Below are positions 28,993 to 43,962 of a DNA stretch of 64,000 bases, in pieces. This DNA comes from a virus. The stretch is taken from the IMG/VR virus record IMGVR_UViG_3300044614_001780, one strand, 5' to 3'. The notes under the pieces are model-generated. The model ran no database searches, was not told where the DNA came from, and saw only the letters and a list, made by a program, of their open reading frames with translations. Position 1 is the first letter of the stretch; every line of letters begins with the position of its first letter. The translations under genes and the position numbers were made by a program.

Positions 28993-29190
28993 CTAAAGGT
29001 CCAAGAAATAACCGCTGATATATTCCAAAGATAATACTTCCAGATTCTCTTTCTGAATTACCCAATCTCGAATCTCACTATAGACACTTTCAGCATCTTT
29101 AATTCGACCCTCATCACACAATTCGTGCATACGATTAATATGGTCTTCAATAAGAGTATTGCAGACTTTTTTAACTTTTAGGTCAATCAT
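28993..29190 (-). CDS. Hypothetical protein
   Basis: 65-aa coupled ORF. Confidence 0.65.
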   Translation of the reverse strand: MIDLKVKKVCNTLIEDHINRMHELCDEGRIKDAESVYSEIRDWVIQKENLEVLSLEYISGYFLDL

Positions 29191-29608
29191 TAAAATAATC
29201 CTTCCGATAATATCTTCCTAGGACATTAGAATTATAATACGCAGGAGTCCCGTCGTCAAGAGACTCAATTAAAACGTTATTTACAAAGAGTTGTCTAGTT
29301 TCTTCGTAATTGCATTTTCCTTTTGTTTTGTGGAGGCTAAGTATTGTTCTGTTGCAGGATGTTTTGCCCCAAAGTTTAACATCAGCTTTGAGTTCGGGAC
29401 ATGATCCATAATAATTTTTCCAATCTGACTCTGATTTAACTTTTCTAGATTTTCCCTTTGGTGTGCGGAAACTCCAGAAATATTTTCTGCCAATGTAACT
29501 ACGACCAGTTTTATCACAATGTATAAGATATACAAAACCAAAATTATCTTGAATATTATCAGACTCAAAAATTTCCCCATTGAATCTCCAAGGGTTTTCA
29601 TAACTCAT
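29183..29608 (-). CDS. GIY-YIG (Seg-like) nuclease-domain protein
   Basis: GFVY...YIGRK...YYGS...E...YYN. Confidence 0.8.
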   Translation of the reverse strand: MSYENPWRFNGEIFESDNIQDNFGFVYLIHCDKTGRSYIGRKYFWSFRTPKGKSRKVKSESDWKNYYGSCPELKADVKLWGKTSCNRTILSLHKTKGKCNYEETRQLFVNNVLIESLDDGTPAYYNSNVLGRYYRKDYFND

Positions 29609-29725: not shown

Positions 29726-31147
29726 TCAGTTTACATTTTTTAGAATCTGACTTAACCACACTTCACTCATATTTTCAATGATTACATTTGCATCATTGAG
29801 AGTTTCAGCAAAGTTGTTCTCAAGGAGGTATGATGCTACAATCTGATAAACTTCTCCCAACTCCTTCTTTTCTCTTGGGGTTAATGTTCCAGCAGACATG
29901 GCAGAACTTCTTGCACTCTGCAAGTCCTTATCACCACCTTCTACCTTAGCAGCATAACCTCTTAATTGTACTCTTGGTTTATCTCTCACAGAACCCCTTC
30001 TAGATGCTGCTAGACCTCTTAGAGTTCTACTTTGTCTTTCTTCTCTCTTCTTTCTGTCTGCGTCAGACTCATCACGCTTGTGCTTGATATAAGGACGGTC
30101 GGCACCTCTTTCTGCTGCTGCAATGGTCTTGTCTACACTACCAGAACGTTGGTATGCCTTGGAACGTGCTGCAAGTTCTTTACGGACTGAAGTTTCACCT
30201 TCCTTGCCGAGTTCCTTACGCATTCTGGTTGCTTCATCAAGTCCAAACTCTTCATTATATTCTTTATTTCTGACCGCTGCAATTGCTTCTGCTTTTGACA
30301 TTCCAGAAGCCATCATTCTTGCAATTCTTACATCTGCGAAGTCATTATCACCATCTTGGTCTTGGTCTTTTTTCTTTGCTTCATAAATTGAAGAATACGC
30401 ATTTGCAACATCTTTAAGAGTTGCTTTTGTTCCCCATTCAAATGATGACATAACTGCTCCTGGTTTTTTAATAGGTGAGGTTGAAGGTGTAGGTTTTGGT
30501 GCTGCAACAACAGGTGCTGCTGGTTTTGGGGCAGGTGCTTCAACTGCAGCAGCAGATCTATTCAAACTTGCCTTTCCAATCTGATTTGCAGTTGCTGATT
30601 TTGCGGTCCCACTTAGAATATTTTTGGCACTTGAAGATTGAGAAATACTATTAACTGCCGCATTTCCTCTAAGTTGATCCAATTCTGCTTTATTTTGACC
30701 TGGCATATCCTTCATTAAAGGATTTGGAGTCTTTGGTTTAGCAAAATTATCACCATATTTAAGTTTATTAACTGACATTCCAGTTTCAGCAGCACCTTTC
30801 ACATCACCTGCTTTTTTCTGTGCAGAATATACTTGCATACCACCCTTAATTTTATCTGCAGTTGATGCAGAAGCAGATGATGAAGTTCCTGGTTTTGCTG
30901 GAGTCACTTTAGTTGGAGTTCCAGTAGTTGGTTTGGTGTATGTTGCCTTTGCGTCTGGATTTACACCACCCAATGAATTAGTTACAGGGAATCTATCACG
31001 AGCACGAACTGGAGTTGATTTTGCTGGTTTCATTGGACCAGAAGGTTTATCATTTGGACCATCCCAAAGAGGTTCATCTCTCAAAGGAGCTTCAGTAATA
31101 ATGCTTTCATATAAATTTTTAACCGCACCAAAATCTTCCTTATTCAT
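29726..31147 (-). CDS. Low-complexity late protein, putative internal head polyprotein
   Basis: Basic modules separated by IITE, SIYE and FGLDE; late promoter at 31184-31189. Confidence 0.7.
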   Translation of the reverse strand: MNKEDFGAVKNLYESIITEAPLRDEPLWDGPNDKPSGPMKPAKSTPVRARDRFPVTNSLGGVNPDAKATYTKPTTGTPTKVTPAKPGTSSSASASTADKIKGGMQVYSAQKKAGDVKGAAETGMSVNKLKYGDNFAKPKTPNPLMKDMPGQNKAELDQLRGNAAVNSISQSSSAKNILSGTAKSATANQIGKASLNRSAAAVEAPAPKPAAPVVAAPKPTPSTSPIKKPGAVMSSFEWGTKATLKDVANAYSSIYEAKKKDQDQDGDNDFADVRIARMMASGMSKAEAIAAVRNKEYNEEFGLDEATRMRKELGKEGETSVRKELAARSKAYQRSGSVDKTIAAAERGADRPYIKHKRDESDADRKKREERQSRTLRGLAASRRGSVRDKPRVQLRGYAAKVEGGDKDLQSARSSAMSAGTLTPREKKELGEVYQIVASYLLENNFAETLNDANVIIENMSEVWLSQILKNVN

Positions 31148-31194
31148 CTTATTGAGAGTAGTAAAAAGTACTTTTCTTAATATTATTTATTCTT

Positions 31195-31593
31195 TTATTT
31201 ATTCTCAGAATCAACCCAATCCCCCTTTATACCCATTGCGCCACCTAAAAGGTCTTGTGCTTTACTTCCATCTTTTTCCTCTTCATAGTAGATAGAAGTT
31301 TTTTCTTCTGGTTGTTCTATTTTTTTATATTCTTCTATTGCTTTATCAACTTCACTCTCAACTCTTTGGTTTAATAATTCTGGTGTATTAATTACATAGT
31401 CATTTATTGTATCATCGATTAAACCACGTTTCAAAAGTTCTTTTTGTATTTCATCAACAAGTTTCCATAATTTATTTTTGTCTATTTTAAATTTAGAAGA
31501 CAAAATCTCGATAATGCCTTCTAGCACTATCGAGATTTTTGCCCATTCTATAATTCCTTTTTTCTTTTTTCCAACTTGGAAATTAAAGTTCAT
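31195..31593 (-). CDS. Hypothetical protein
   Basis: 132-aa coupled ORF. Confidence 0.7.
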   Translation of the reverse strand: MNFNFQVGKKKKGIIEWAKISIVLEGIIEILSSKFKIDKNKLWKLVDEIQKELLKRGLIDDTINDYVINTPELLNQRVESEVDKAIEEYKKIEQPEEKTSIYYEEEKDGSKAQDLLGGAMGIKGDWVDSENK

Positions 31594-32189
31594 TTTTTGG
31601 GGGGTGCAGAAACTTTTGCATACACCATTCTCTTACCCCATTTTTCTGGAGTAGTTCCTTTTCCTGCAATGTCTTTGGTAATTTGGGGAGACACATCAAA
31701 AGAAACATCTTTATTTACATTTCCAGTTCTTCCAAAATCACCAACATCATTAATTTTTGCTGTTGTAGATTTTGTCTTTGTTCCCTGTGGATTTGCAGTT
31801 AACTGCAATTTGGAACCATAAGAAATAGATGGTTTTCCTTCTTGTCCTTTTGGTGCCTGTCCTTCCTTATACTTAAAAGGAACTGCAGCATTTCTAGTTG
31901 TCCAGTTATGGGGGTCACCAGTTGCTGTAGTCTTGTTTGGAGTGAATTTATCTCCAGGAGCATACACTGATGCCTTTACTGGTTTCCAACCATATCTTTG
32001 TTGTTCTGCACCAGTATGTGCTCTTTGAGTGAATTTACCAGTAGATTTATCAAGTTCACCAGACTTATAATTTTTATATGCCAAAACCTTTGTATTTGGT
32101 TTTGGTTTTGCTGTTGGTTTAGATGCAAAAGGACCAAAGAACTCACTCAATGAATATGCTTCCGCACAAAATTCTTTATAAGTTTTCAT
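31590..32189 (-). CDS. Capsid-targeted protein with C-terminal RlpA-like double-psi beta-barrel
   Basis: N-terminus MKTYKEFCAE (cf. T4 IP MKTYQEFIAE); AAVP..YGSKL..KINDVG..FDVS. Confidence 0.65.
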   Translation of the reverse strand: MKTYKEFCAEAYSLSEFFGPFASKPTAKPKPNTKVLAYKNYKSGELDKSTGKFTQRAHTGAEQQRYGWKPVKASVYAPGDKFTPNKTTATGDPHNWTTRNAAVPFKYKEGQAPKGQEGKPSISYGSKLQLTANPQGTKTKSTTAKINDVGDFGRTGNVNKDVSFDVSPQITKDIAGKGTTPEKWGKRMVYAKVSAPPKK

Positions 32190-32192
32190 AAT

Positions 32193-34670
32193 TTATTTTG
32201 CTGGTTTTTGAAGTGATTGGAAACTTCTATTTCCTTTTGCATCATATTTAACTGTGCCTTTGACACCACCCAGAGTTGCACCATAAGACTGTCCAACTTT
32301 TGCCTTTCCTTTTGCTACTTGGTTTACTCCAGAATTTCCAAGATTTGCACGAACCATTCTTTGTCCTTTATCCCCATAAGTAGCAGTTCCCTTAACTCCA
32401 CCAACCTTTACATCATATGCTTTATTAGTAGCAACTTTTTGCTGCTTTCCTGCGATATTTGTTGCAGAAATTACTTTACTTGGTTTTACGTCAGAAGGAC
32501 CTGACTTTCCTGTTCCTTCTTGTGATGGAATGTTTCCTACTTTTGGTTTTGCTCTTGTTGCTGCCATTCCTGCTGCTTGAATCTGTTGTCTGGTCTTTCC
32601 AGATTTTGCAGCGGCATCACCACCTCCAGCACGGAAAGCAGCATCACCACCTCTTGCCGAGTCAGATGACATTCCTGTAGGTTTTGGTTTATTTTGCTTC
32701 CCTAGTAATGCTGCTCTATTTTGTGCCTTTCCAGCATCGGTTTTCCCTCTTTGAACTGCCCTACTAAATTTTCCAGTAAGTCCACCAGTTTTCATAGTAT
32801 TGATTGCTGATTTATTGATATTACTAATTGCACTTCCAACTGCTCCAGCTGCTTTTCCTACTGCTGCTCTATTTTGTGCTTTTCCAGCATCAGTAGAACT
32901 CCTAGAAACTGCTCTATTAAAAGAACCTAATACTCCACCACCATCAGAAAAGGACTTAATATTTTCATCAATTTGTAAATCGTCATTTTCCACAATAAAT
33001 TGTTTCCAGTATTCATAAGCAGTCATCTCTTCGGTCTTGGTTGCTTGATAAGAACGAACTCTAGATTCACCTTTTTTGTCGGGTGCTACCATATGGGTTT
33101 TGATTTTCTTTGATGTTGGTGCTTCCTTCTTTTCTTTCTCAAATGCCTTATGAACTTTGGCAGCATCATCATACATATGGATTTTCTTAGCACCACTTTG
33201 CTTTGCTACTGCATTTGCAACATCAACTTTCTTCTTACCAATATCACCACCTTTCATTCCACCAGTGTAGTGAATGTTCTTCTTATCTACGTCAACACCA
33301 TGCTTCTTGAGGTGTCCTTGGAATTCACTTGGTTTATCAAACTTAGAACGAGCAGTAATGAGATGAACGTTTTGTCCTCTTGCTTGCTTTCTCTTGATAT
33401 CCTTAATTACTTTTTTGTTTGGACTAGCAGTTTGGGAGAACTTTTTAGCACTTTGGAACTCACTAAAGTCATAAGAATGTCCCTTATCTAACTTATGAGT
33501 ATTGAACTCCTGGTTGCTTAAACTCTTGACTCTCTTGCCAGATGCATCCTTAACGTGAACCTGAACGTTTGGTTTACCTTTCTTACCGTGTCCGAAGAGA
33601 GTTTCGTCAACATCATATGCATGAACTGTTGTCTTTTTTCTAGTTCCTCTTGCCTTCTCTTCAATATACTCCTCAAGAATAACTGAGGTAAACTCATCAC
33701 TAATGTGCTCAAACATTACTTCTGCTGCTTCATAACTCTCTGCGTAATCTGCAGCAACTAGCATTTCAATAACATAATCATATGCATCATCATAGTCAAA
33801 AGACTGATTCAATTGCTTCATTTGATTAGCATATCTATTTCCACCAATAGGAGAAGTATTTCTTGCTTTATCAATTGCAGAATCTGCTTTTTTCTTAAGT
33901 GCTTCCATACCTTTACTTGCAGCCATAATGCCACCAGCAGCTAAAGCACCTTTAACTAGAAGTCCAGCAACCTCATCAATTTGCTCACCTTCTGGTTCAA
34001 ATGAATTTGCCATTGCTTGCTTACGGATAGTGGCAAAATAAATCTGAGTTCCTTTCTCTTTACCGTATTGGTCAATCATACTCTTCTTCATTGATGAAGT
34101 GTCATACTTCTTTTTAAGTTTTTTCTCTTTCTTCATCTCTCCAGAAGTCATTTCTCTTTCCAAGATATACTCTTCCTTATAACCTTTTGCTGCAGAACTC
34201 CAATAATCATCCCAAGACTTTTGATTTGCTTCAGCATCTTCTCTAGAAGATGGTTTGAAAGTTCCACTTGTTTTACGAATAGAACCTTGAGGTTTTCTTG
34301 TTTTCTTTTTAGTTCTTGCCTTTGCTGCCAAGGATTCAATTTCTTCTTTTGATGCTGGTTTATCTTGGACTTTTTTTGTCACTGGATTCCAGTGTGCTTC
34401 ATCTACCATATCTCCATCTAGTTCATATCCAGCAACTTGCATTCCTGGTTTTGCTTTTGCGAGAGGAAGTTGAGGTCCAGTTCTCTTCAAAAATTCTTTC
34501 TTTTCGTAAGGATTATCAGTTCCAGTTCCTTTATTGTATAGTTTTTGTGTCTTCTGGGCACCTTTATGTCCAGGACCAATCTCAAAACTTTGCTCAGAAA
34601 GTAAAGTCCCTGCAGTTTCAGAGGTTTTAATTTGAGTGTACAAGTTTTTAATATCGTTAATACTGGACAT
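32193..34670 (-). CDS. Large modular late protein containing a HAD phosphatase domain; putative internal head polyprotein
   Basis: DVDETL, ITARS and YDDA HAD motifs; repeated acidic (I/V/L)xE linkers; TATAAATA at 34693-34700. Confidence 0.75.
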   Translation of the reverse strand: MSSINDIKNLYTQIKTSETAGTLLSEQSFEIGPGHKGAQKTQKLYNKGTGTDNPYEKKEFLKRTGPQLPLAKAKPGMQVAGYELDGDMVDEAHWNPVTKKVQDKPASKEEIESLAAKARTKKKTRKPQGSIRKTSGTFKPSSREDAEANQKSWDDYWSSAAKGYKEEYILEREMTSGEMKKEKKLKKKYDTSSMKKSMIDQYGKEKGTQIYFATIRKQAMANSFEPEGEQIDEVAGLLVKGALAAGGIMAASKGMEALKKKADSAIDKARNTSPIGGNRYANQMKQLNQSFDYDDAYDYVIEMLVAADYAESYEAAEVMFEHISDEFTSVILEEYIEEKARGTRKKTTVHAYDVDETLFGHGKKGKPNVQVHVKDASGKRVKSLSNQEFNTHKLDKGHSYDFSEFQSAKKFSQTASPNKKVIKDIKRKQARGQNVHLITARSKFDKPSEFQGHLKKHGVDVDKKNIHYTGGMKGGDIGKKKVDVANAVAKQSGAKKIHMYDDAAKVHKAFEKEKKEAPTSKKIKTHMVAPDKKGESRVRSYQATKTEEMTAYEYWKQFIVENDDLQIDENIKSFSDGGGVLGSFNRAVSRSSTDAGKAQNRAAVGKAAGAVGSAISNINKSAINTMKTGGLTGKFSRAVQRGKTDAGKAQNRAALLGKQNKPKPTGMSSDSARGGDAAFRAGGGDAAAKSGKTRQQIQAAGMAATRAKPKVGNIPSQEGTGKSGPSDVKPSKVISATNIAGKQQKVATNKAYDVKVGGVKGTATYGDKGQRMVRANLGNSGVNQVAKGKAKVGQSYGATLGGVKGTVKYDAKGNRSFQSLQKPAK

Positions 34671-34699
34671 TTTTATACTCTAGTTTTTTAGTTATTTAT

Positions 34700-34724
34700 A
34701 AAAAAAGGGGAGCAACTGCCCCCC
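34700..34724 (-). terminator. Terminator after nrdB
   Basis: GGGGGGC/GCTCCCC stem plus T-run. Confidence 0.7.
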
Positions 34725-41189: not shown

Positions 41190-42779
41190 TTACCATTTAA
41201 CTTTGTTTGCCCAATAAGCAGCAGACATTTTTCCCTTTTTAATATTTTTTGCATGTCTTGTTTGAAATCTATGACGACGACTTGCATATTTCTTAGATTC
41301 TCCCTTTTTCTTGGGAGAACCCTTTACACCAAGTTGACCAAAACGAATTAATCTTTCTTTACCACCTTCACATGCCTTTACGACATGGGATTTTCCAGTT
41401 TCACCAGAACCATGTGCCTCAGCTCTAGGCTTATTGCACTTCATTTCAGACTTTTTTGACTCCTCTATTTCAACCCCCTCTCCAATTATACCATTGATTA
41501 GTTGTGAATTTTTTCTTCTTTTTGCATTTTCAAGTGCCTTTAATACCATTAGCATTAAAATTTTTTTTTTATCTAATTCTTCAGAAAGTTTTTCATCACT
41601 CTGCATATACTCAGAGGCAGTATCAATATAATCTGCAGCTCTGGTAATTTTCGATTGAACCCAGGCAGGCATTTGTGTATCTGCCTTCTTTATTTTTTTA
41701 CGAAGTGCCTTAATTGCTCTCTCCATTTGATCCAATTCAACATTTGCCATATAACCTTCATCATCTTTCTTTTTACCACTAGCAATTTCATTATGGTCTT
41801 CCATAATTCGTGGATTCATCTCAATTTTATTTTTTCCTTTCATCACATCGATAATTTTTTTCTTGGAAATCTTTTCTTTATTTCCACCTTTTTCCTCAAT
41901 TTCAAATAAAAACTCTTCTTTCCAATTTGAATACTCTTCCATTCTTGCTTGAATTAAATTAGTTTTCAACTTTTTATTTTGCCTTGCTTTTTGACCGAGA
42001 GTTGGTTCTGTTCTCGAACCTTCTGCAGGACCAGCAGTTCTTCTTTCTCCCTCAGATGAAGGTTTCAGCATTTTCCTCTTATCCACCCCATAAGGAAGTT
42101 GTGGTCTATCTGGAGATGGTTGTCCAATTCTCTTTGCTGGTTGACCAACTCTAAATCCACCTTCAGAAGAAGCAGGAAGTCTCCTTCTTTTACTTATTAG
42201 TTTTCCTGGGGGAAGAGCCTTTCTTTCCGAAGAATCAACATTTTTTGGACCAGTTTCTCTAGACTCTTCTCTTTTTGGTCTTCCTGGTTTTCCTAAATCT
42301 TTTTTCTCATTTTGTTTTTTCAGGGAGTCTTTTGCTTCTTTTTTCTTTTGGAGTGCCTTTGCCCCATGGTAAGCACCCTTTGCCAATCCAGCAGCAAGAG
42401 ATCCTAGATTTTCAATTGCCTTGGAATGTGCGGTAAGTTCTGGGTCTTTATATCCAATTTTTTGCACCTTTACACTTGCTAAAGCCTTTTTTGCCTTAGC
42501 ACCTTCAGTTTCTGCTGCTTCTTTCCCTTTTTCTAACTGCCTCTTTTTTTGATCTTCGTATTTTTGTTTTTTAAATTCAAGTTGTTGTTGAAGATACTTG
42601 GTATAATTAGATGACTCCTCCTTGCCCTTACCCTTTGCTTTCTTATTTTTCTTTTGCTCAGACTCCAAGGCTTCTCTTCCTTTTTTGTTTATTTCGGAAG
42701 AAGTTAACTTTTTTCCATCCTTTTTGGATGTTCTTTCATATTTTTTATCTTCAAAGATATACTTTTCCCAGTAGGTCAT
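41190..42779 (-). CDS. Basic modular late protein, putative internal head polyprotein
   Basis: MTYWEKYIFE start; EEYSNWKEEF, IMED, LSEE and VEIEE linkers; PAWVQSKI and SAAYWA..KW modules; TATAAATA at 42809-42816. Confidence 0.7.
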   Translation of the reverse strand: MTYWEKYIFEDKKYERTSKKDGKKLTSSEINKKGREALESEQKKNKKAKGKGKEESSNYTKYLQQQLEFKKQKYEDQKKRQLEKGKEAAETEGAKAKKALASVKVQKIGYKDPELTAHSKAIENLGSLAAGLAKGAYHGAKALQKKKEAKDSLKKQNEKKDLGKPGRPKREESRETGPKNVDSSERKALPPGKLISKRRRLPASSEGGFRVGQPAKRIGQPSPDRPQLPYGVDKRKMLKPSSEGERRTAGPAEGSRTEPTLGQKARQNKKLKTNLIQARMEEYSNWKEEFLFEIEEKGGNKEKISKKKIIDVMKGKNKIEMNPRIMEDHNEIASGKKKDDEGYMANVELDQMERAIKALRKKIKKADTQMPAWVQSKITRAADYIDTASEYMQSDEKLSEELDKKKILMLMVLKALENAKRRKNSQLINGIIGEGVEIEESKKSEMKCNKPRAEAHGSGETGKSHVVKACEGGKERLIRFGQLGVKGSPKKKGESKKYASRRHRFQTRHAKNIKKGKMSAAYWANKVKW

Positions 42780-42807: not shown

Positions 42808-43962
42808 TTATTTATAGTTTTTGCGGGAAATATGAGATTTCTTTTTTTTACTTGCAGAGAAATCTCGAACCTTTTCTCCTGGGGTAATCCCCTGAACATA
42901 ATTTAAATACTCAAGAGTACCTATCTCATGAACTTCTCTAACATCTCTTAACCAACTCTTAAACATGAGATTGTCTTCTGTTACACAAATCAAATAATTT
43001 GCACCTCTTCTAATAATTTTACCAATCAATCCACTATTTACATTTTCAACAAAAGTACCAACTTCAAAAAGATTATTGTTTTTATAATTCCATCTCAACC
43101 CATCATAGTCAAACTCTGGTTCTATTCTCCAAGCCTCAGTTGACTCATTAACTTTCATGGATTTTCTAAGAGTATTAAACATCTCTTCTTTTTCTCTCTG
43201 ATCCATATTAATTGGGAGACCTGCCTCAAATTTGTAAAAATCTCCCATAGCAACTGCAGCTTTCATAAGAGCAGAAGAACCAGGGGATTCTACCTCGCTA
43301 TCTGGGTCCTTTACTCCTGCAGTGATTACTTCCAAATTAGAAAATTCATATCCCTGTCCTTCTGCTTTATGAGCCAAACTTTGAAATTCTCCAAGTCTTT
43401 CTTGCCCAACAACTAAAGTAACATCAGTATACCCATCAGAATATACAGATTCAAGAATATCAAATATTGTTCTAGCATCTTCACTATCAACAATGTATTC
43501 CTCGTAATCAGGAAACATTGATTTCATATAAGCAATCTTTAAAGTGGGGTTTAGTGGATTTGAAGAAGAATCTTGTATTCTACTTGGGTATATTCTATAT
43601 TCAAATCCTTTTCGTTTTGCCTGAGAAAATCCTGCTTTTAGCAATTGCTCATGATTTTTTGATGGGGGATTAAATCTTCCAAGAACAACAACAACTCCTT
43701 TTGGTTCTTGTTCCTGTGTTTGTTGCTGTGTTTGATTCTGGTAGTTGGCACTAACTTTTTCTTCTTCACCAGGAATACCATCTACAGATTTCGAATCACC
43801 TTGCCCATAAAACTTTAGTTTACCATTAACAGTTTTTGCAACAAAATTTCCTTGATTGTCATACCAATCTCCATGACCATTACCTACAAGTCCACGGTTC
43901 TTTGCCTCAGTAGATGCTAAGGTCTCTACTGCCTCGTTAAAAAATTTAGCAAAAGTCTTCAT
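42808..43962 (-). CDS. Cytidylyltransferase-like (HIGH-superfamily) protein with capsid-targeting-like N-terminus
   Basis: MKTFAKFFNE; GRFNPPSKNH, VVGQER and SSALMK motifs; late promoter at 43981. Confidence 0.8.
   Translation of the reverse strand: MKTFAKFFNEAVETLASTEAKNRGLVGNGHGDWYDNQGNFVAKTVNGKLKFYGQGDSKSVDGIPGEEEKVSANYQNQTQQQTQEQEPKGVVVVLGRFNPPSKNHEQLLKAGFSQAKRKGFEYRIYPSRIQDSSSNPLNPTLKIAYMKSMFPDYEEYIVDSEDARTIFDILESVYSDGYTDVTLVVGQERLGEFQSLAHKAEGQGYEFSNLEVITAGVKDPDSEVESPGSSALMKAAVAMGDFYKFEAGLPINMDQREKEEMFNTLRKSMKVNESTEAWRIEPEFDYDGLRWNYKNNNLFEVGTFVENVNSGLIGKIIRRGANYLICVTEDNLMFKSWLRDVREVHEIGTLEYLNYVQGITPGEKVRDFSASKKKKSHISRKNYK

Follow-up and report, generated by a model that had tools for sequence, protein, structure and literature searches.

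The capsid-targeting tag of the internal proteins of phage T4, the specificity of its prohead protease gp21 and the variety of tagged cargo among T-even phages are established (PMC9026906, PMC3012670, PMC8442874). Within the tag, residues 4 and 7 matter in targeting and residues 8 and 10 in processing (PMC9026906). The internal proteins IPII and IPIII both begin with MKTYQEFIAE followed by Ala, and for IPI the start is MKTFKEF and the cut follows Ile-Thr-Glu at residue 19 (NC_000866). In the literature searched, no paper connects either the capsid-targeting sequence or internal proteins of the head with genes of cyanophages. Here we describe a block of four open reading frames (ORFs A to D) in a stretch of 64,000 nucleotides, hereafter the window, from the IMG/VR virus record IMGVR_UViG_3300044614_001780. 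On balance, the block probably encodes head-interior cargo, a cyanophage counterpart of the internal proteins of T4, with part of the cargo made, on this reading, as cuttable chains of modules.

The window genome is that of a T4-like cyanomyovirus, carrying gp22, gp23, gp3, uvsY, uvsW, gp46, DNA polymerase, nrdA/nrdB, zwf and gnd on the minus strand. The nearest capsid proteins in the phage collection are no more than 81% identical to its own capsid protein, and the related contigs are metagenomic without exception. The block consists of four co-oriented minus-strand ORFs after nrdB, with products of 825 (A), 199 (B), 132 (C) and 473 (D) residues (Table 1), and all four were found as described in an initial annotation of this DNA. 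Three nucleotides separate the stop of A from the start of B, while the stop of B overlaps the start of C. A, B and D are all basic, with Lys and Arg together making up 17-18% of each.

Table 1. Coordinates of the block, its parts and associated features within the window
Feature	Position	Strand	Basis
Terminator-like GC stem and T-run closing nrdB, directly upstream of the late-promoter motif	34701-34724	-	read from sequence
T4-type late-promoter motif TATAAATA, 23 nucleotides before the ATG of A	34693-34700	-	sequence; motif counts
ORF A, basic modular protein, candidate head-cargo polyprotein	32193-34670	-	338 homologs, stepwise query coverage
A leader, residues 1-26, ending Leu-Ser-Glu; kept in homologs with differing next module	34593-34670	-	alignments
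A module 1, residues 27-91, ending Val-Asp-Glu then Ala; stand-alone cyanopodovirus gene of about 75 residues	34398-34592	-	alignments
A module 2, residues 92-171, ending Ile-Leu-Glu; in homologs either there as a whole or missing (L015 joins q91 to q167)	34158-34397	-	alignments
A module 3, residues 172-233, Lys-rich, ending Ile-Asp-Glu	33972-34157	-	alignments
A segment, residues 234-291, Gly/Ala-rich hydrophobic and basic stretches; homolog breakpoints at about 250 and about 288	33798-33971	-	composition, alignment ends
A helical module, residues 292-338, ending Ile-Glu-Glu then Lys; homologous to the D C-terminus	33657-33797	-	hhalign, HMM, model
A predicted HAD-fold phosphatase domain, residues 339-545	33036-33656	-	model pLDDT 82, Foldseek, motif conservation
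A tail, residues 546-569, WKQFIVE (copy of the T4 tag core) then two hydrophobic-x-Glu sites	32964-33035	-	alignments, regular expression
A C-terminal extension, residues 570-825 (256 residues), Gly/Ala/Lys-rich, internal repeats	32196-32963	-	alignments
ORF B, putative propeptide and mature part	31590-32189	-	ORF list; tag comparison; model
B capsid-targeting-like propeptide, residues 1-16, MKTYKEFCAE and six residues ending Leu-Ser-Glu	32142-32189	-	T4 comparison; 13 homologs; model
B mature part, residues 17-199, basic Pro/Lys linker then double-psi beta-barrel (residues 66-194)	31590-32141	-	model pLDDT 80
ORF C, 132 residues, acidic, phrog_3316	31195-31593	-	homolog positions elsewhere
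Pair of ATAAATA motifs in tandem, late-promoter-like, 37 and 49 nucleotides before D	31184-31190, 31196-31202	-	motif scan
ORF D, 473 residues, two leader-bearing units fused	29726-31147	-	369 homologs
T4-GC190, cyanophage 'cytitidyltransferase', 384 residues, tag MKTFAKFFNE then Ala, ATAAATA 19 nucleotides upstream	42808-43962	-	tag regular expression

The block resembles the T4 internal proteins in several respects. B has the tag core Met-Lys-Thr-Tyr/Phe-x-Glu/Gln-Phe and the hydrophobic-x-Glu end known from IPI, IPII and IPIII, different genes carry the tag in front of mature domains that are unrelated to one another, the mature products are Lys-rich and basic, and late promoters precede the genes. 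The gp21/gp22 machinery is common to both (gp21 here by way of a relative), and an enzyme would be among the cargo, as is Alt in T4. However, the T4 proteins are single and small and are cut once, whereas A and D are chains of several modules, 473-825 residues long, with the motif before each module and a different leader. The tag core is internal or C-terminal in A, and the tag of B is 16 residues long and followed by Phe. A HAD phosphatase and a double-psi barrel are not known as T4 cargo.

Two further groups of head proteins invite comparison. The ejection or inner-body proteins of the giant phages SPN3US and phiKZ are head proteins bound for the host and cut at multiple x-x-Glu sites by a gp21-related protease (PMC10052503), as is predicted here. 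In SPN3US the cuts identified, other than self-cleavage of the protease, all yield N-terminal propeptides, some of them broken into several fragments (PMC10052503), whereas every module of A and D looks like a product; moreover, the cleavage motif and the proteins are unrelated to those of A and D. T4 gp22, gp67 and gp68 likewise have short N-terminal leaders ending in Leu/Ile-x-Glu and several gp21 cuts, yet they are acidic assembly proteins.

The most direct connection with T4 lies at the start of ORF B, which the initial annotation had read as capsid-targeting. The sequence MKTYKEFCAE does open the ORF, and it is identical to the tag of IPII and IPIII at 8 of 10 positions, retaining positions 4, 7 and 10; the first seven residues fit the pattern that IPI and IPIII share. 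Across 13 B homologs M1, K2, F7 and E16 are invariant, the consensus being the T4 core followed by hydrophobic-x-Glu. A regular expression for the tag was run on all six frames of the window and of 40 loci, and matched only the three T4 internal proteins, every B homolog, four small cyanophage genes and the GC190 gene of the window. The four small tagged genes (L013:7220-7984 (+), L018:2856, L022:4691 and L024:827) adjoin gp3 or B in other cyanophages, and their mature parts are basic and unrelated; one product of 254 residues starts with MKTFREFILE followed by Ala. These genes resemble the variable internal-protein clusters of T-even phages.

The GC190 gene, a core gene of cyanophages, offers a precedent outside the block. 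It shares the T4-type ten-residue tag followed by Ala, and the window copy has a late-promoter motif, although its product is one enzyme and no chain of modules. The tag is kept in marine homologs; those of S-SM1, P-RSM1 and Sf-FS3 all carry ten residues of the same pattern, again followed by Ala. T4-GC190 was detected by mass spectrometry in purified S-SM1 virions, as was T4-GC1454, the product of the next gene, and no tag or processing is mentioned for T4-GC190 in that report (Sullivan et al. 2010, PMC3037559). No one seems to have drawn attention to the tag so far. S-SM1 T4-GC190 is the sole experimental anchor for a tagged enzyme really present in cyanophage particles. Directly after the tagged gene, the window encodes a Lys-rich protein of 529 residues (41190-42779, minus strand) with TATAAATA 30 nucleotides upstream; the S-SM1 gene at this position is that of the virion protein T4-GC1454.

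A B homolog is present in 25 loci. In 18 of these its place is between gp23 and gp3 or immediately behind gp3, and in the remaining 7 it is within the nrdB-A-B-(C)-D block. Annotated examples of the head-gene position are found in DSL-LC03 and in the cultured Synechococcus phage S-PRM1, where the homolog follows gp23. Capsid targeting of B, predicted from sequence, has good support from a tag core identical to that of T4, from the head-gene neighbourhood of the homologs and from the tagged cyanophage enzyme in virions, and we regard B as likely to be a packaged internal protein.

A model of B built from the 13-sequence alignment (predicted local distance difference test score, pLDDT, 80) starts with a helix (residues 4-17), followed by disorder over residues 16-26 and then a beta-rich domain. 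The mature part adopts a double-psi beta-barrel fold in this model, on which Foldseek agrees with the Z-score comparison. The closest structures are PA4485 (Z 11.1, root-mean-square deviation 2.8 over 94 residues), 8kea_A, a baseplate protein of cyanophage A-1(L) (residues 285-390, Z 10.6, 27% identity over 101 residues), kiwellin (Z 10.3), expansins and MltA (Z 6.3). B gave no Pfam match over the cut-offs and no PDB sequence match. D148 and D165 are invariant across the 13 homologs and are at most candidates for the catalytic Asp of an RlpA/MltA-type lytic transglycosylase. The likeness to 8kea_A hints that one barrel serves both as a tail component and, in this phage, as the domain following a head tag.

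Resemblance of the barrel to cell-wall-active proteins and to a cyanophage baseplate protein would also fit a tail-associated role, a point against packaging of B. Extended to the whole block, such a role would make these late proteins directed at the envelope, with the cell wall as their target during lysis or from a place in the tail, with the neighbouring genes as functional partners and the tag likeness of B convergent. We hold this to be very unlikely. It can draw on the RlpA/MltA/expansin-type folds and the A-1(L) baseplate match, on a gene of the phage tail-lysozyme family 1 kb downstream and on the Gly/Ala-rich hydrophobic stretch in A. The tag match, however, is too specific for chance, as the six-frame scans return tag-type genes only; B is without a signal peptide, its homologs adjoin gp23 and not baseplate genes, and the lysozyme-family gene has its own leader and is set apart by a homing-endonuclease gene.

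If B is head cargo, the question arises whether the two large ORFs of the block belong to the same system. Homologs of A (338) and D (369) are metagenomic throughout. In the phage collection, A matched over only 54 residues (21-74), to a free-standing gene of about 75 residues in T7-like cyanopodoviruses, and D had no match. This stand-alone version of module 1 (L001:5938-6171 and L002:5910-6125) is situated between scaffold and capsid genes, beside hli/psbA. Neither A nor D gave a Pfam match over the cut-offs, and nothing useful for D was obtained from the ESM Atlas.

Pairwise BLASTP between A and D showed no similarity, and the helical module that the initial annotation had noticed in both was seen with profile methods only. 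By these it is real: residues 292-338 of A and 425-473 of D are homologous (hhalign 97%, E 1e-10, 46 columns), and hidden Markov models (HMMs) of the two matched each other reciprocally in the window, with E values of 4e-5 and 6e-6, while none of the remaining window ORFs matched. In A the module was modelled as helices. Other proteins of cyanophages contain it in as many as three copies each, for example gp294 and gp295 of B23, located between gp46 and gp45. A protein of 399 residues at L035 (G004:C1:77527-80862) has three copies, so the module appears to be a repeatable unit in its own right. A gp67-like prohead-core domain was considered for it and rejected (hhalign probability 0.1%), and a match of 13 residues and 7.4 bits to T4 gp68 was too weak for use.

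Common to A and D is also an N-terminal leader, variable in sequence and 7-26 residues long, that ends in hydrophobic-x-Glu. The shared N-terminal motif reported earlier for the two ORFs can be stated as Leu/Ala-Tyr-x-x-Ile/Val-x-x-Glu and is conserved in about 240 homologs of both families. A targeting role for these leaders is a guess. D comprises a first leader (residues 1-19), a Pro/Ala/Lys-rich unit (20-234), an internal leader (235-256), an Asp-rich stretch with DGD, then a basic region and, last, the helical module. Because many stand-alone proteins of 273-467 residues begin with the sequence of the internal leader, D is interpreted as a fusion of two leader-bearing units. The second unit shares the leader and the DGD stretch with marine T4-GC1454, a lead that amounts to an HMM match of only 10-11 bits; pairwise comparison of D with this virion protein family was not significant. 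The motif Arg-Asp-Glu-Pro-Leu-Trp, which may serve in binding, occurs right after leaders or at the extreme C-terminus of many cargo-type proteins, including D (residues 21-28), L038 and, at the C-terminus, many members of the D family.

Homologs cover A in steps of about 32, 48, 68 and 89%, which suggests that it is built of modules. The helical module and the HAD domain form the conserved core, and exchangeable cassettes follow the leader. Among the matches listed, 77 of 120 homologs end at q559, within a tail that holds Tyr-Trp-Lys-Gln-Phe-Ile; the A protein of the window continues past the tail through Ile-Val-Glu and Ile-Asp-Glu into the C-terminal extension. In D-family proteins of other phages the module of this extension stands right behind the leader, and part of B also recurs as a module in the D family. 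Modules are further encountered apart or recombined, as with module 1 in podoviruses, the stand-alone second unit of D and the exchange among the A, B and D families.

A connection between A-type proteins and B is supported by two kinds of sequence evidence. Two natural fusions, P0084 and P0247, differ in architecture and both run from an A tail through hydrophobic-x-Glu into the mature B domain. In addition, WKQFIVE in the tail of A fits the T4 tag core YQEFIAE, and a tag-core regular expression applied to the 55,157 residues of the window ORFs matched only B and the A tail.

Each of the acidic (I/L/V)xE stretches that the initial annotation had listed between modules is in place. For six recurrent modules in about 240 homologs, all distinct six-residue contexts upstream of the module start were collected. 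A [LIVMFY]xE motif whose Glu is 0-3 residues ahead of the module start is present in 89 of 89 such contexts; the background at random positions in the same proteins is 9.8%. The junctions tabulated number 84; Glu at P1 is constant in these by construction of the search, Ile, Leu or Val occupies P3 in 76 and Ala occupies P1' in 43, while P2 and P4 vary freely. The T4 cut sites (NC_000866) read Leu/Ile-x-Glu, with Ala next in 6 of 9. Retention of the cut motif at individual sites ranges from 52 to 96% and at most junctions exceeds the identity of the flanking sequence; at sites 254 and 303 of D it is 85-90%. One module is preceded by Ile-Asp-Glu within A and by Tyr-Leu-x-Glu behind the leader of D-type proteins. 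Such a constant Glu beside unrelated upstream sequence cannot be put down to shared descent of the module starts, which can account for part of the pattern. In the stand-alone podovirus version of module 1, the position of the myovirus Glu is taken by Ser or Gln; to our knowledge T7-like phages have no prohead protease. These comparative data support a protease-site function for the junctions of A and D, from which we infer the cleavage itself.

Several observations weigh against this reading. The N-terminal leaders of A and D differ from the T4 tag, and the residue after the tag of B (P1') is Phe, where IPII and IPIII have the small residue Ala. The A and D families have no member among the cultured phages in the searched collection. 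As a motif hydrophobic-x-Glu is minimal, and part of its conservation could reflect shared descent of module N-termini. The coincidence of homolog breakpoints with the xE linkers, which had been proposed as a check, did not reach significance: a crude BLAST test of breakpoints and long gaps against the six linkers listed for A and the three for D gave P 0.07-0.16 for A and was not significant for D, and many indels fall within low-complexity stretches away from the linkers. The module-start comparison, used in its stead, was the sharper of the two tests. Lastly, the window ends before gp21, so that the gene would be expected in this exact genome by way of a relative.

Some of these observations would suit a view of A and D as intact late multi-domain proteins, of the virion or the cytoplasm, in which the xE stretches are not cut by a protease but are ordinary linkers, flexible or helical, or conserved N-termini of modules. 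The HAD domain would then work in the infected cell, for instance on nucleotides, beside nrdAB, and the block does directly follow nrdA/nrdB; the breakpoint permutation result and a minimal motif common enough to have a 9.8% background are in keeping with this. We nevertheless judge it improbable. A terminator and a late promoter lie between nrdB and the block, Glu is kept in every junction context while P2, P4 and the upstream sequence vary, A-type chains are fused to the domain of the tag-bearing B, the tag core is repeated inside A, and the stand-alone podovirus module is without the Glu. As for the initial claim that the block encodes packaged, protease-cleavable polyproteins, the targeting of B, the junction motif, the A-B fusions and the tag copy in A speak for it; the leaders of A and D, the breakpoint test and ORF C, which is unrelated, do not.

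The nature of the modules bears on what they might do once in the head. Residues 339-545 of A are predicted, from the model, to be a phosphatase of the HAD superfamily. The catalytic residues (D353, D355 and T357 of the DxDxT motif, T439, K480/K481 and D501/D502) are all invariant in 35 homologs, and the domain is therefore considered an enzyme under selection. Foldseek matched the model to AphA, the Lem4 HAD domain of Legionella and the T4 Pnkp phosphatase, each with probability 1.0, and also to phosphoserine phosphatase. A profile match to phrog_415 was obtained (E 4e-4), with no Pfam match over the cut-offs and no PDB sequence match.

Packaging and cutting could also serve assembly alone. 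A and D would then be parts of the assembly core, or charge-balancing parts, like T4 gp22, gp67 and gp68, and their fragments would be mostly expelled or only DNA-neutralising, with no effector role in the next host. T4 core proteins are indeed cut at many Leu/Ile-x-Glu sites (PMC9026906), the gp22 of the window has 20 [LIV]xE motifs in 313 residues, A and D are largely disordered (the Atlas model of D has a pLDDT of 0.49), and Lys residues of T4 internal proteins contact DNA (PMC3012670). This explanation has little probability in our estimation, given the invariant HAD residues and the well-conserved barrel of B, which argue for enzymatic or binding activity after release. Furthermore, the modules of A and D are basic, in contrast to the acidic gp22 and gp67 scaffold peptides that T4 expels (PMC8442874).

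Components of the head machinery required by the preferred reading, in which the block encodes head cargo, are found in or near the window. It holds gp22 (PF25623) and gp23, and the contig of a close relative with the same block (G003) encodes a gp21-type Peptidase_S77. Aligned with its T4 counterpart, the gp23 of the window shows gaps around the site at which T4 gp23 is cut in maturation, and the alignment yields no equivalent site.

The promoters of the block are of T4 late type. Both motifs named in the initial annotation, TATAAATA before A and TAAATA before D, were confirmed, the latter as part of ATAAATA and with a second copy. The minus (coding) strand of the window has 17 copies of ATAAATA and the other strand 0, most of them 17-50 nucleotides before ORF starts, and on account of this strand bias and position the heptamer is taken to act as a late-promoter element. 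The full octamer TATAAATA is not by itself enriched in the window (6 observed, 4.5 expected). The copy of TATAAATA before A probably drives A-B-C as a single transcript.

The sequence of events would be as follows, with targeting, cleavage, retention and ejection all steps that we infer. Late transcription would start from the TATAAATA and ATAAATA motifs. B would be taken into the scaffolding core through its T4-type N-terminal tag and trimmed after Leu-Ser-Glu by a gp21-type prohead protease, leaving the basic linker and double-psi beta-barrel in the head. A and D would enter the core as long precursors, for which the N-terminal leader, the shared helical module and the internal tag-core copy of A are candidate addresses. 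The same protease would cut them after the hydrophobic-x-Glu that precedes each module, and the released Lys-rich mini-proteins and HAD phosphatase would stay with the DNA and exit with it at infection. Judged from the comparative evidence, the case for A and D being packaged and cut stands about even, and the action of their pieces as separate injected effectors is a tentative and rather doubtful suggestion.

Two genes in and beside the block call for separate mention. Homologs of ORF C in S-CREM1 and B23 are located among early/replication genes, and C is absent or divergent in related blocks. Its family is widespread in cyanomyoviruses, and its insertion between B and D is lineage-specific. 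C is not counted in the system because its homologs sit among early genes elsewhere; it is probably a passenger gene. Directly downstream of D lies a gene for a SegE-like GIY-YIG homing endonuclease (29183-29608, minus strand), which is kept with the block in related contigs and could help in moving or shuffling the cassette.

Taken to its full extent, the proposal is of a combinatorial head-cargo system in T4-like cyanophages, a speculative picture that we rate as possible but doubtful. A dozen or more modules and enzymes (HAD phosphatase, double-psi barrel, nucleotidyltransferase) would appear in changing orders, each behind a prohead-protease site, so that one late gene would deliver a fixed-ratio cocktail into the next host under an address label conserved since the common ancestor with coliphage T4. 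The non-DNA load that cyanophages bring into the cell is almost unknown, and it is within minutes of the start of infection that take-over and the evasion of defences are decided, in hosts that rank among the most abundant on Earth. If the proposal is true, packaged cargo would be predictable from sequence alone by means of the tag and cut motifs, and portable tags and linkers might be used to load proteins into phage heads. It would also explain the enzymes in purified cyanophage particles. The head-loading address of T4 would then be ancient, with a polyprotein logic added in cyanophages that T4 itself does not use.

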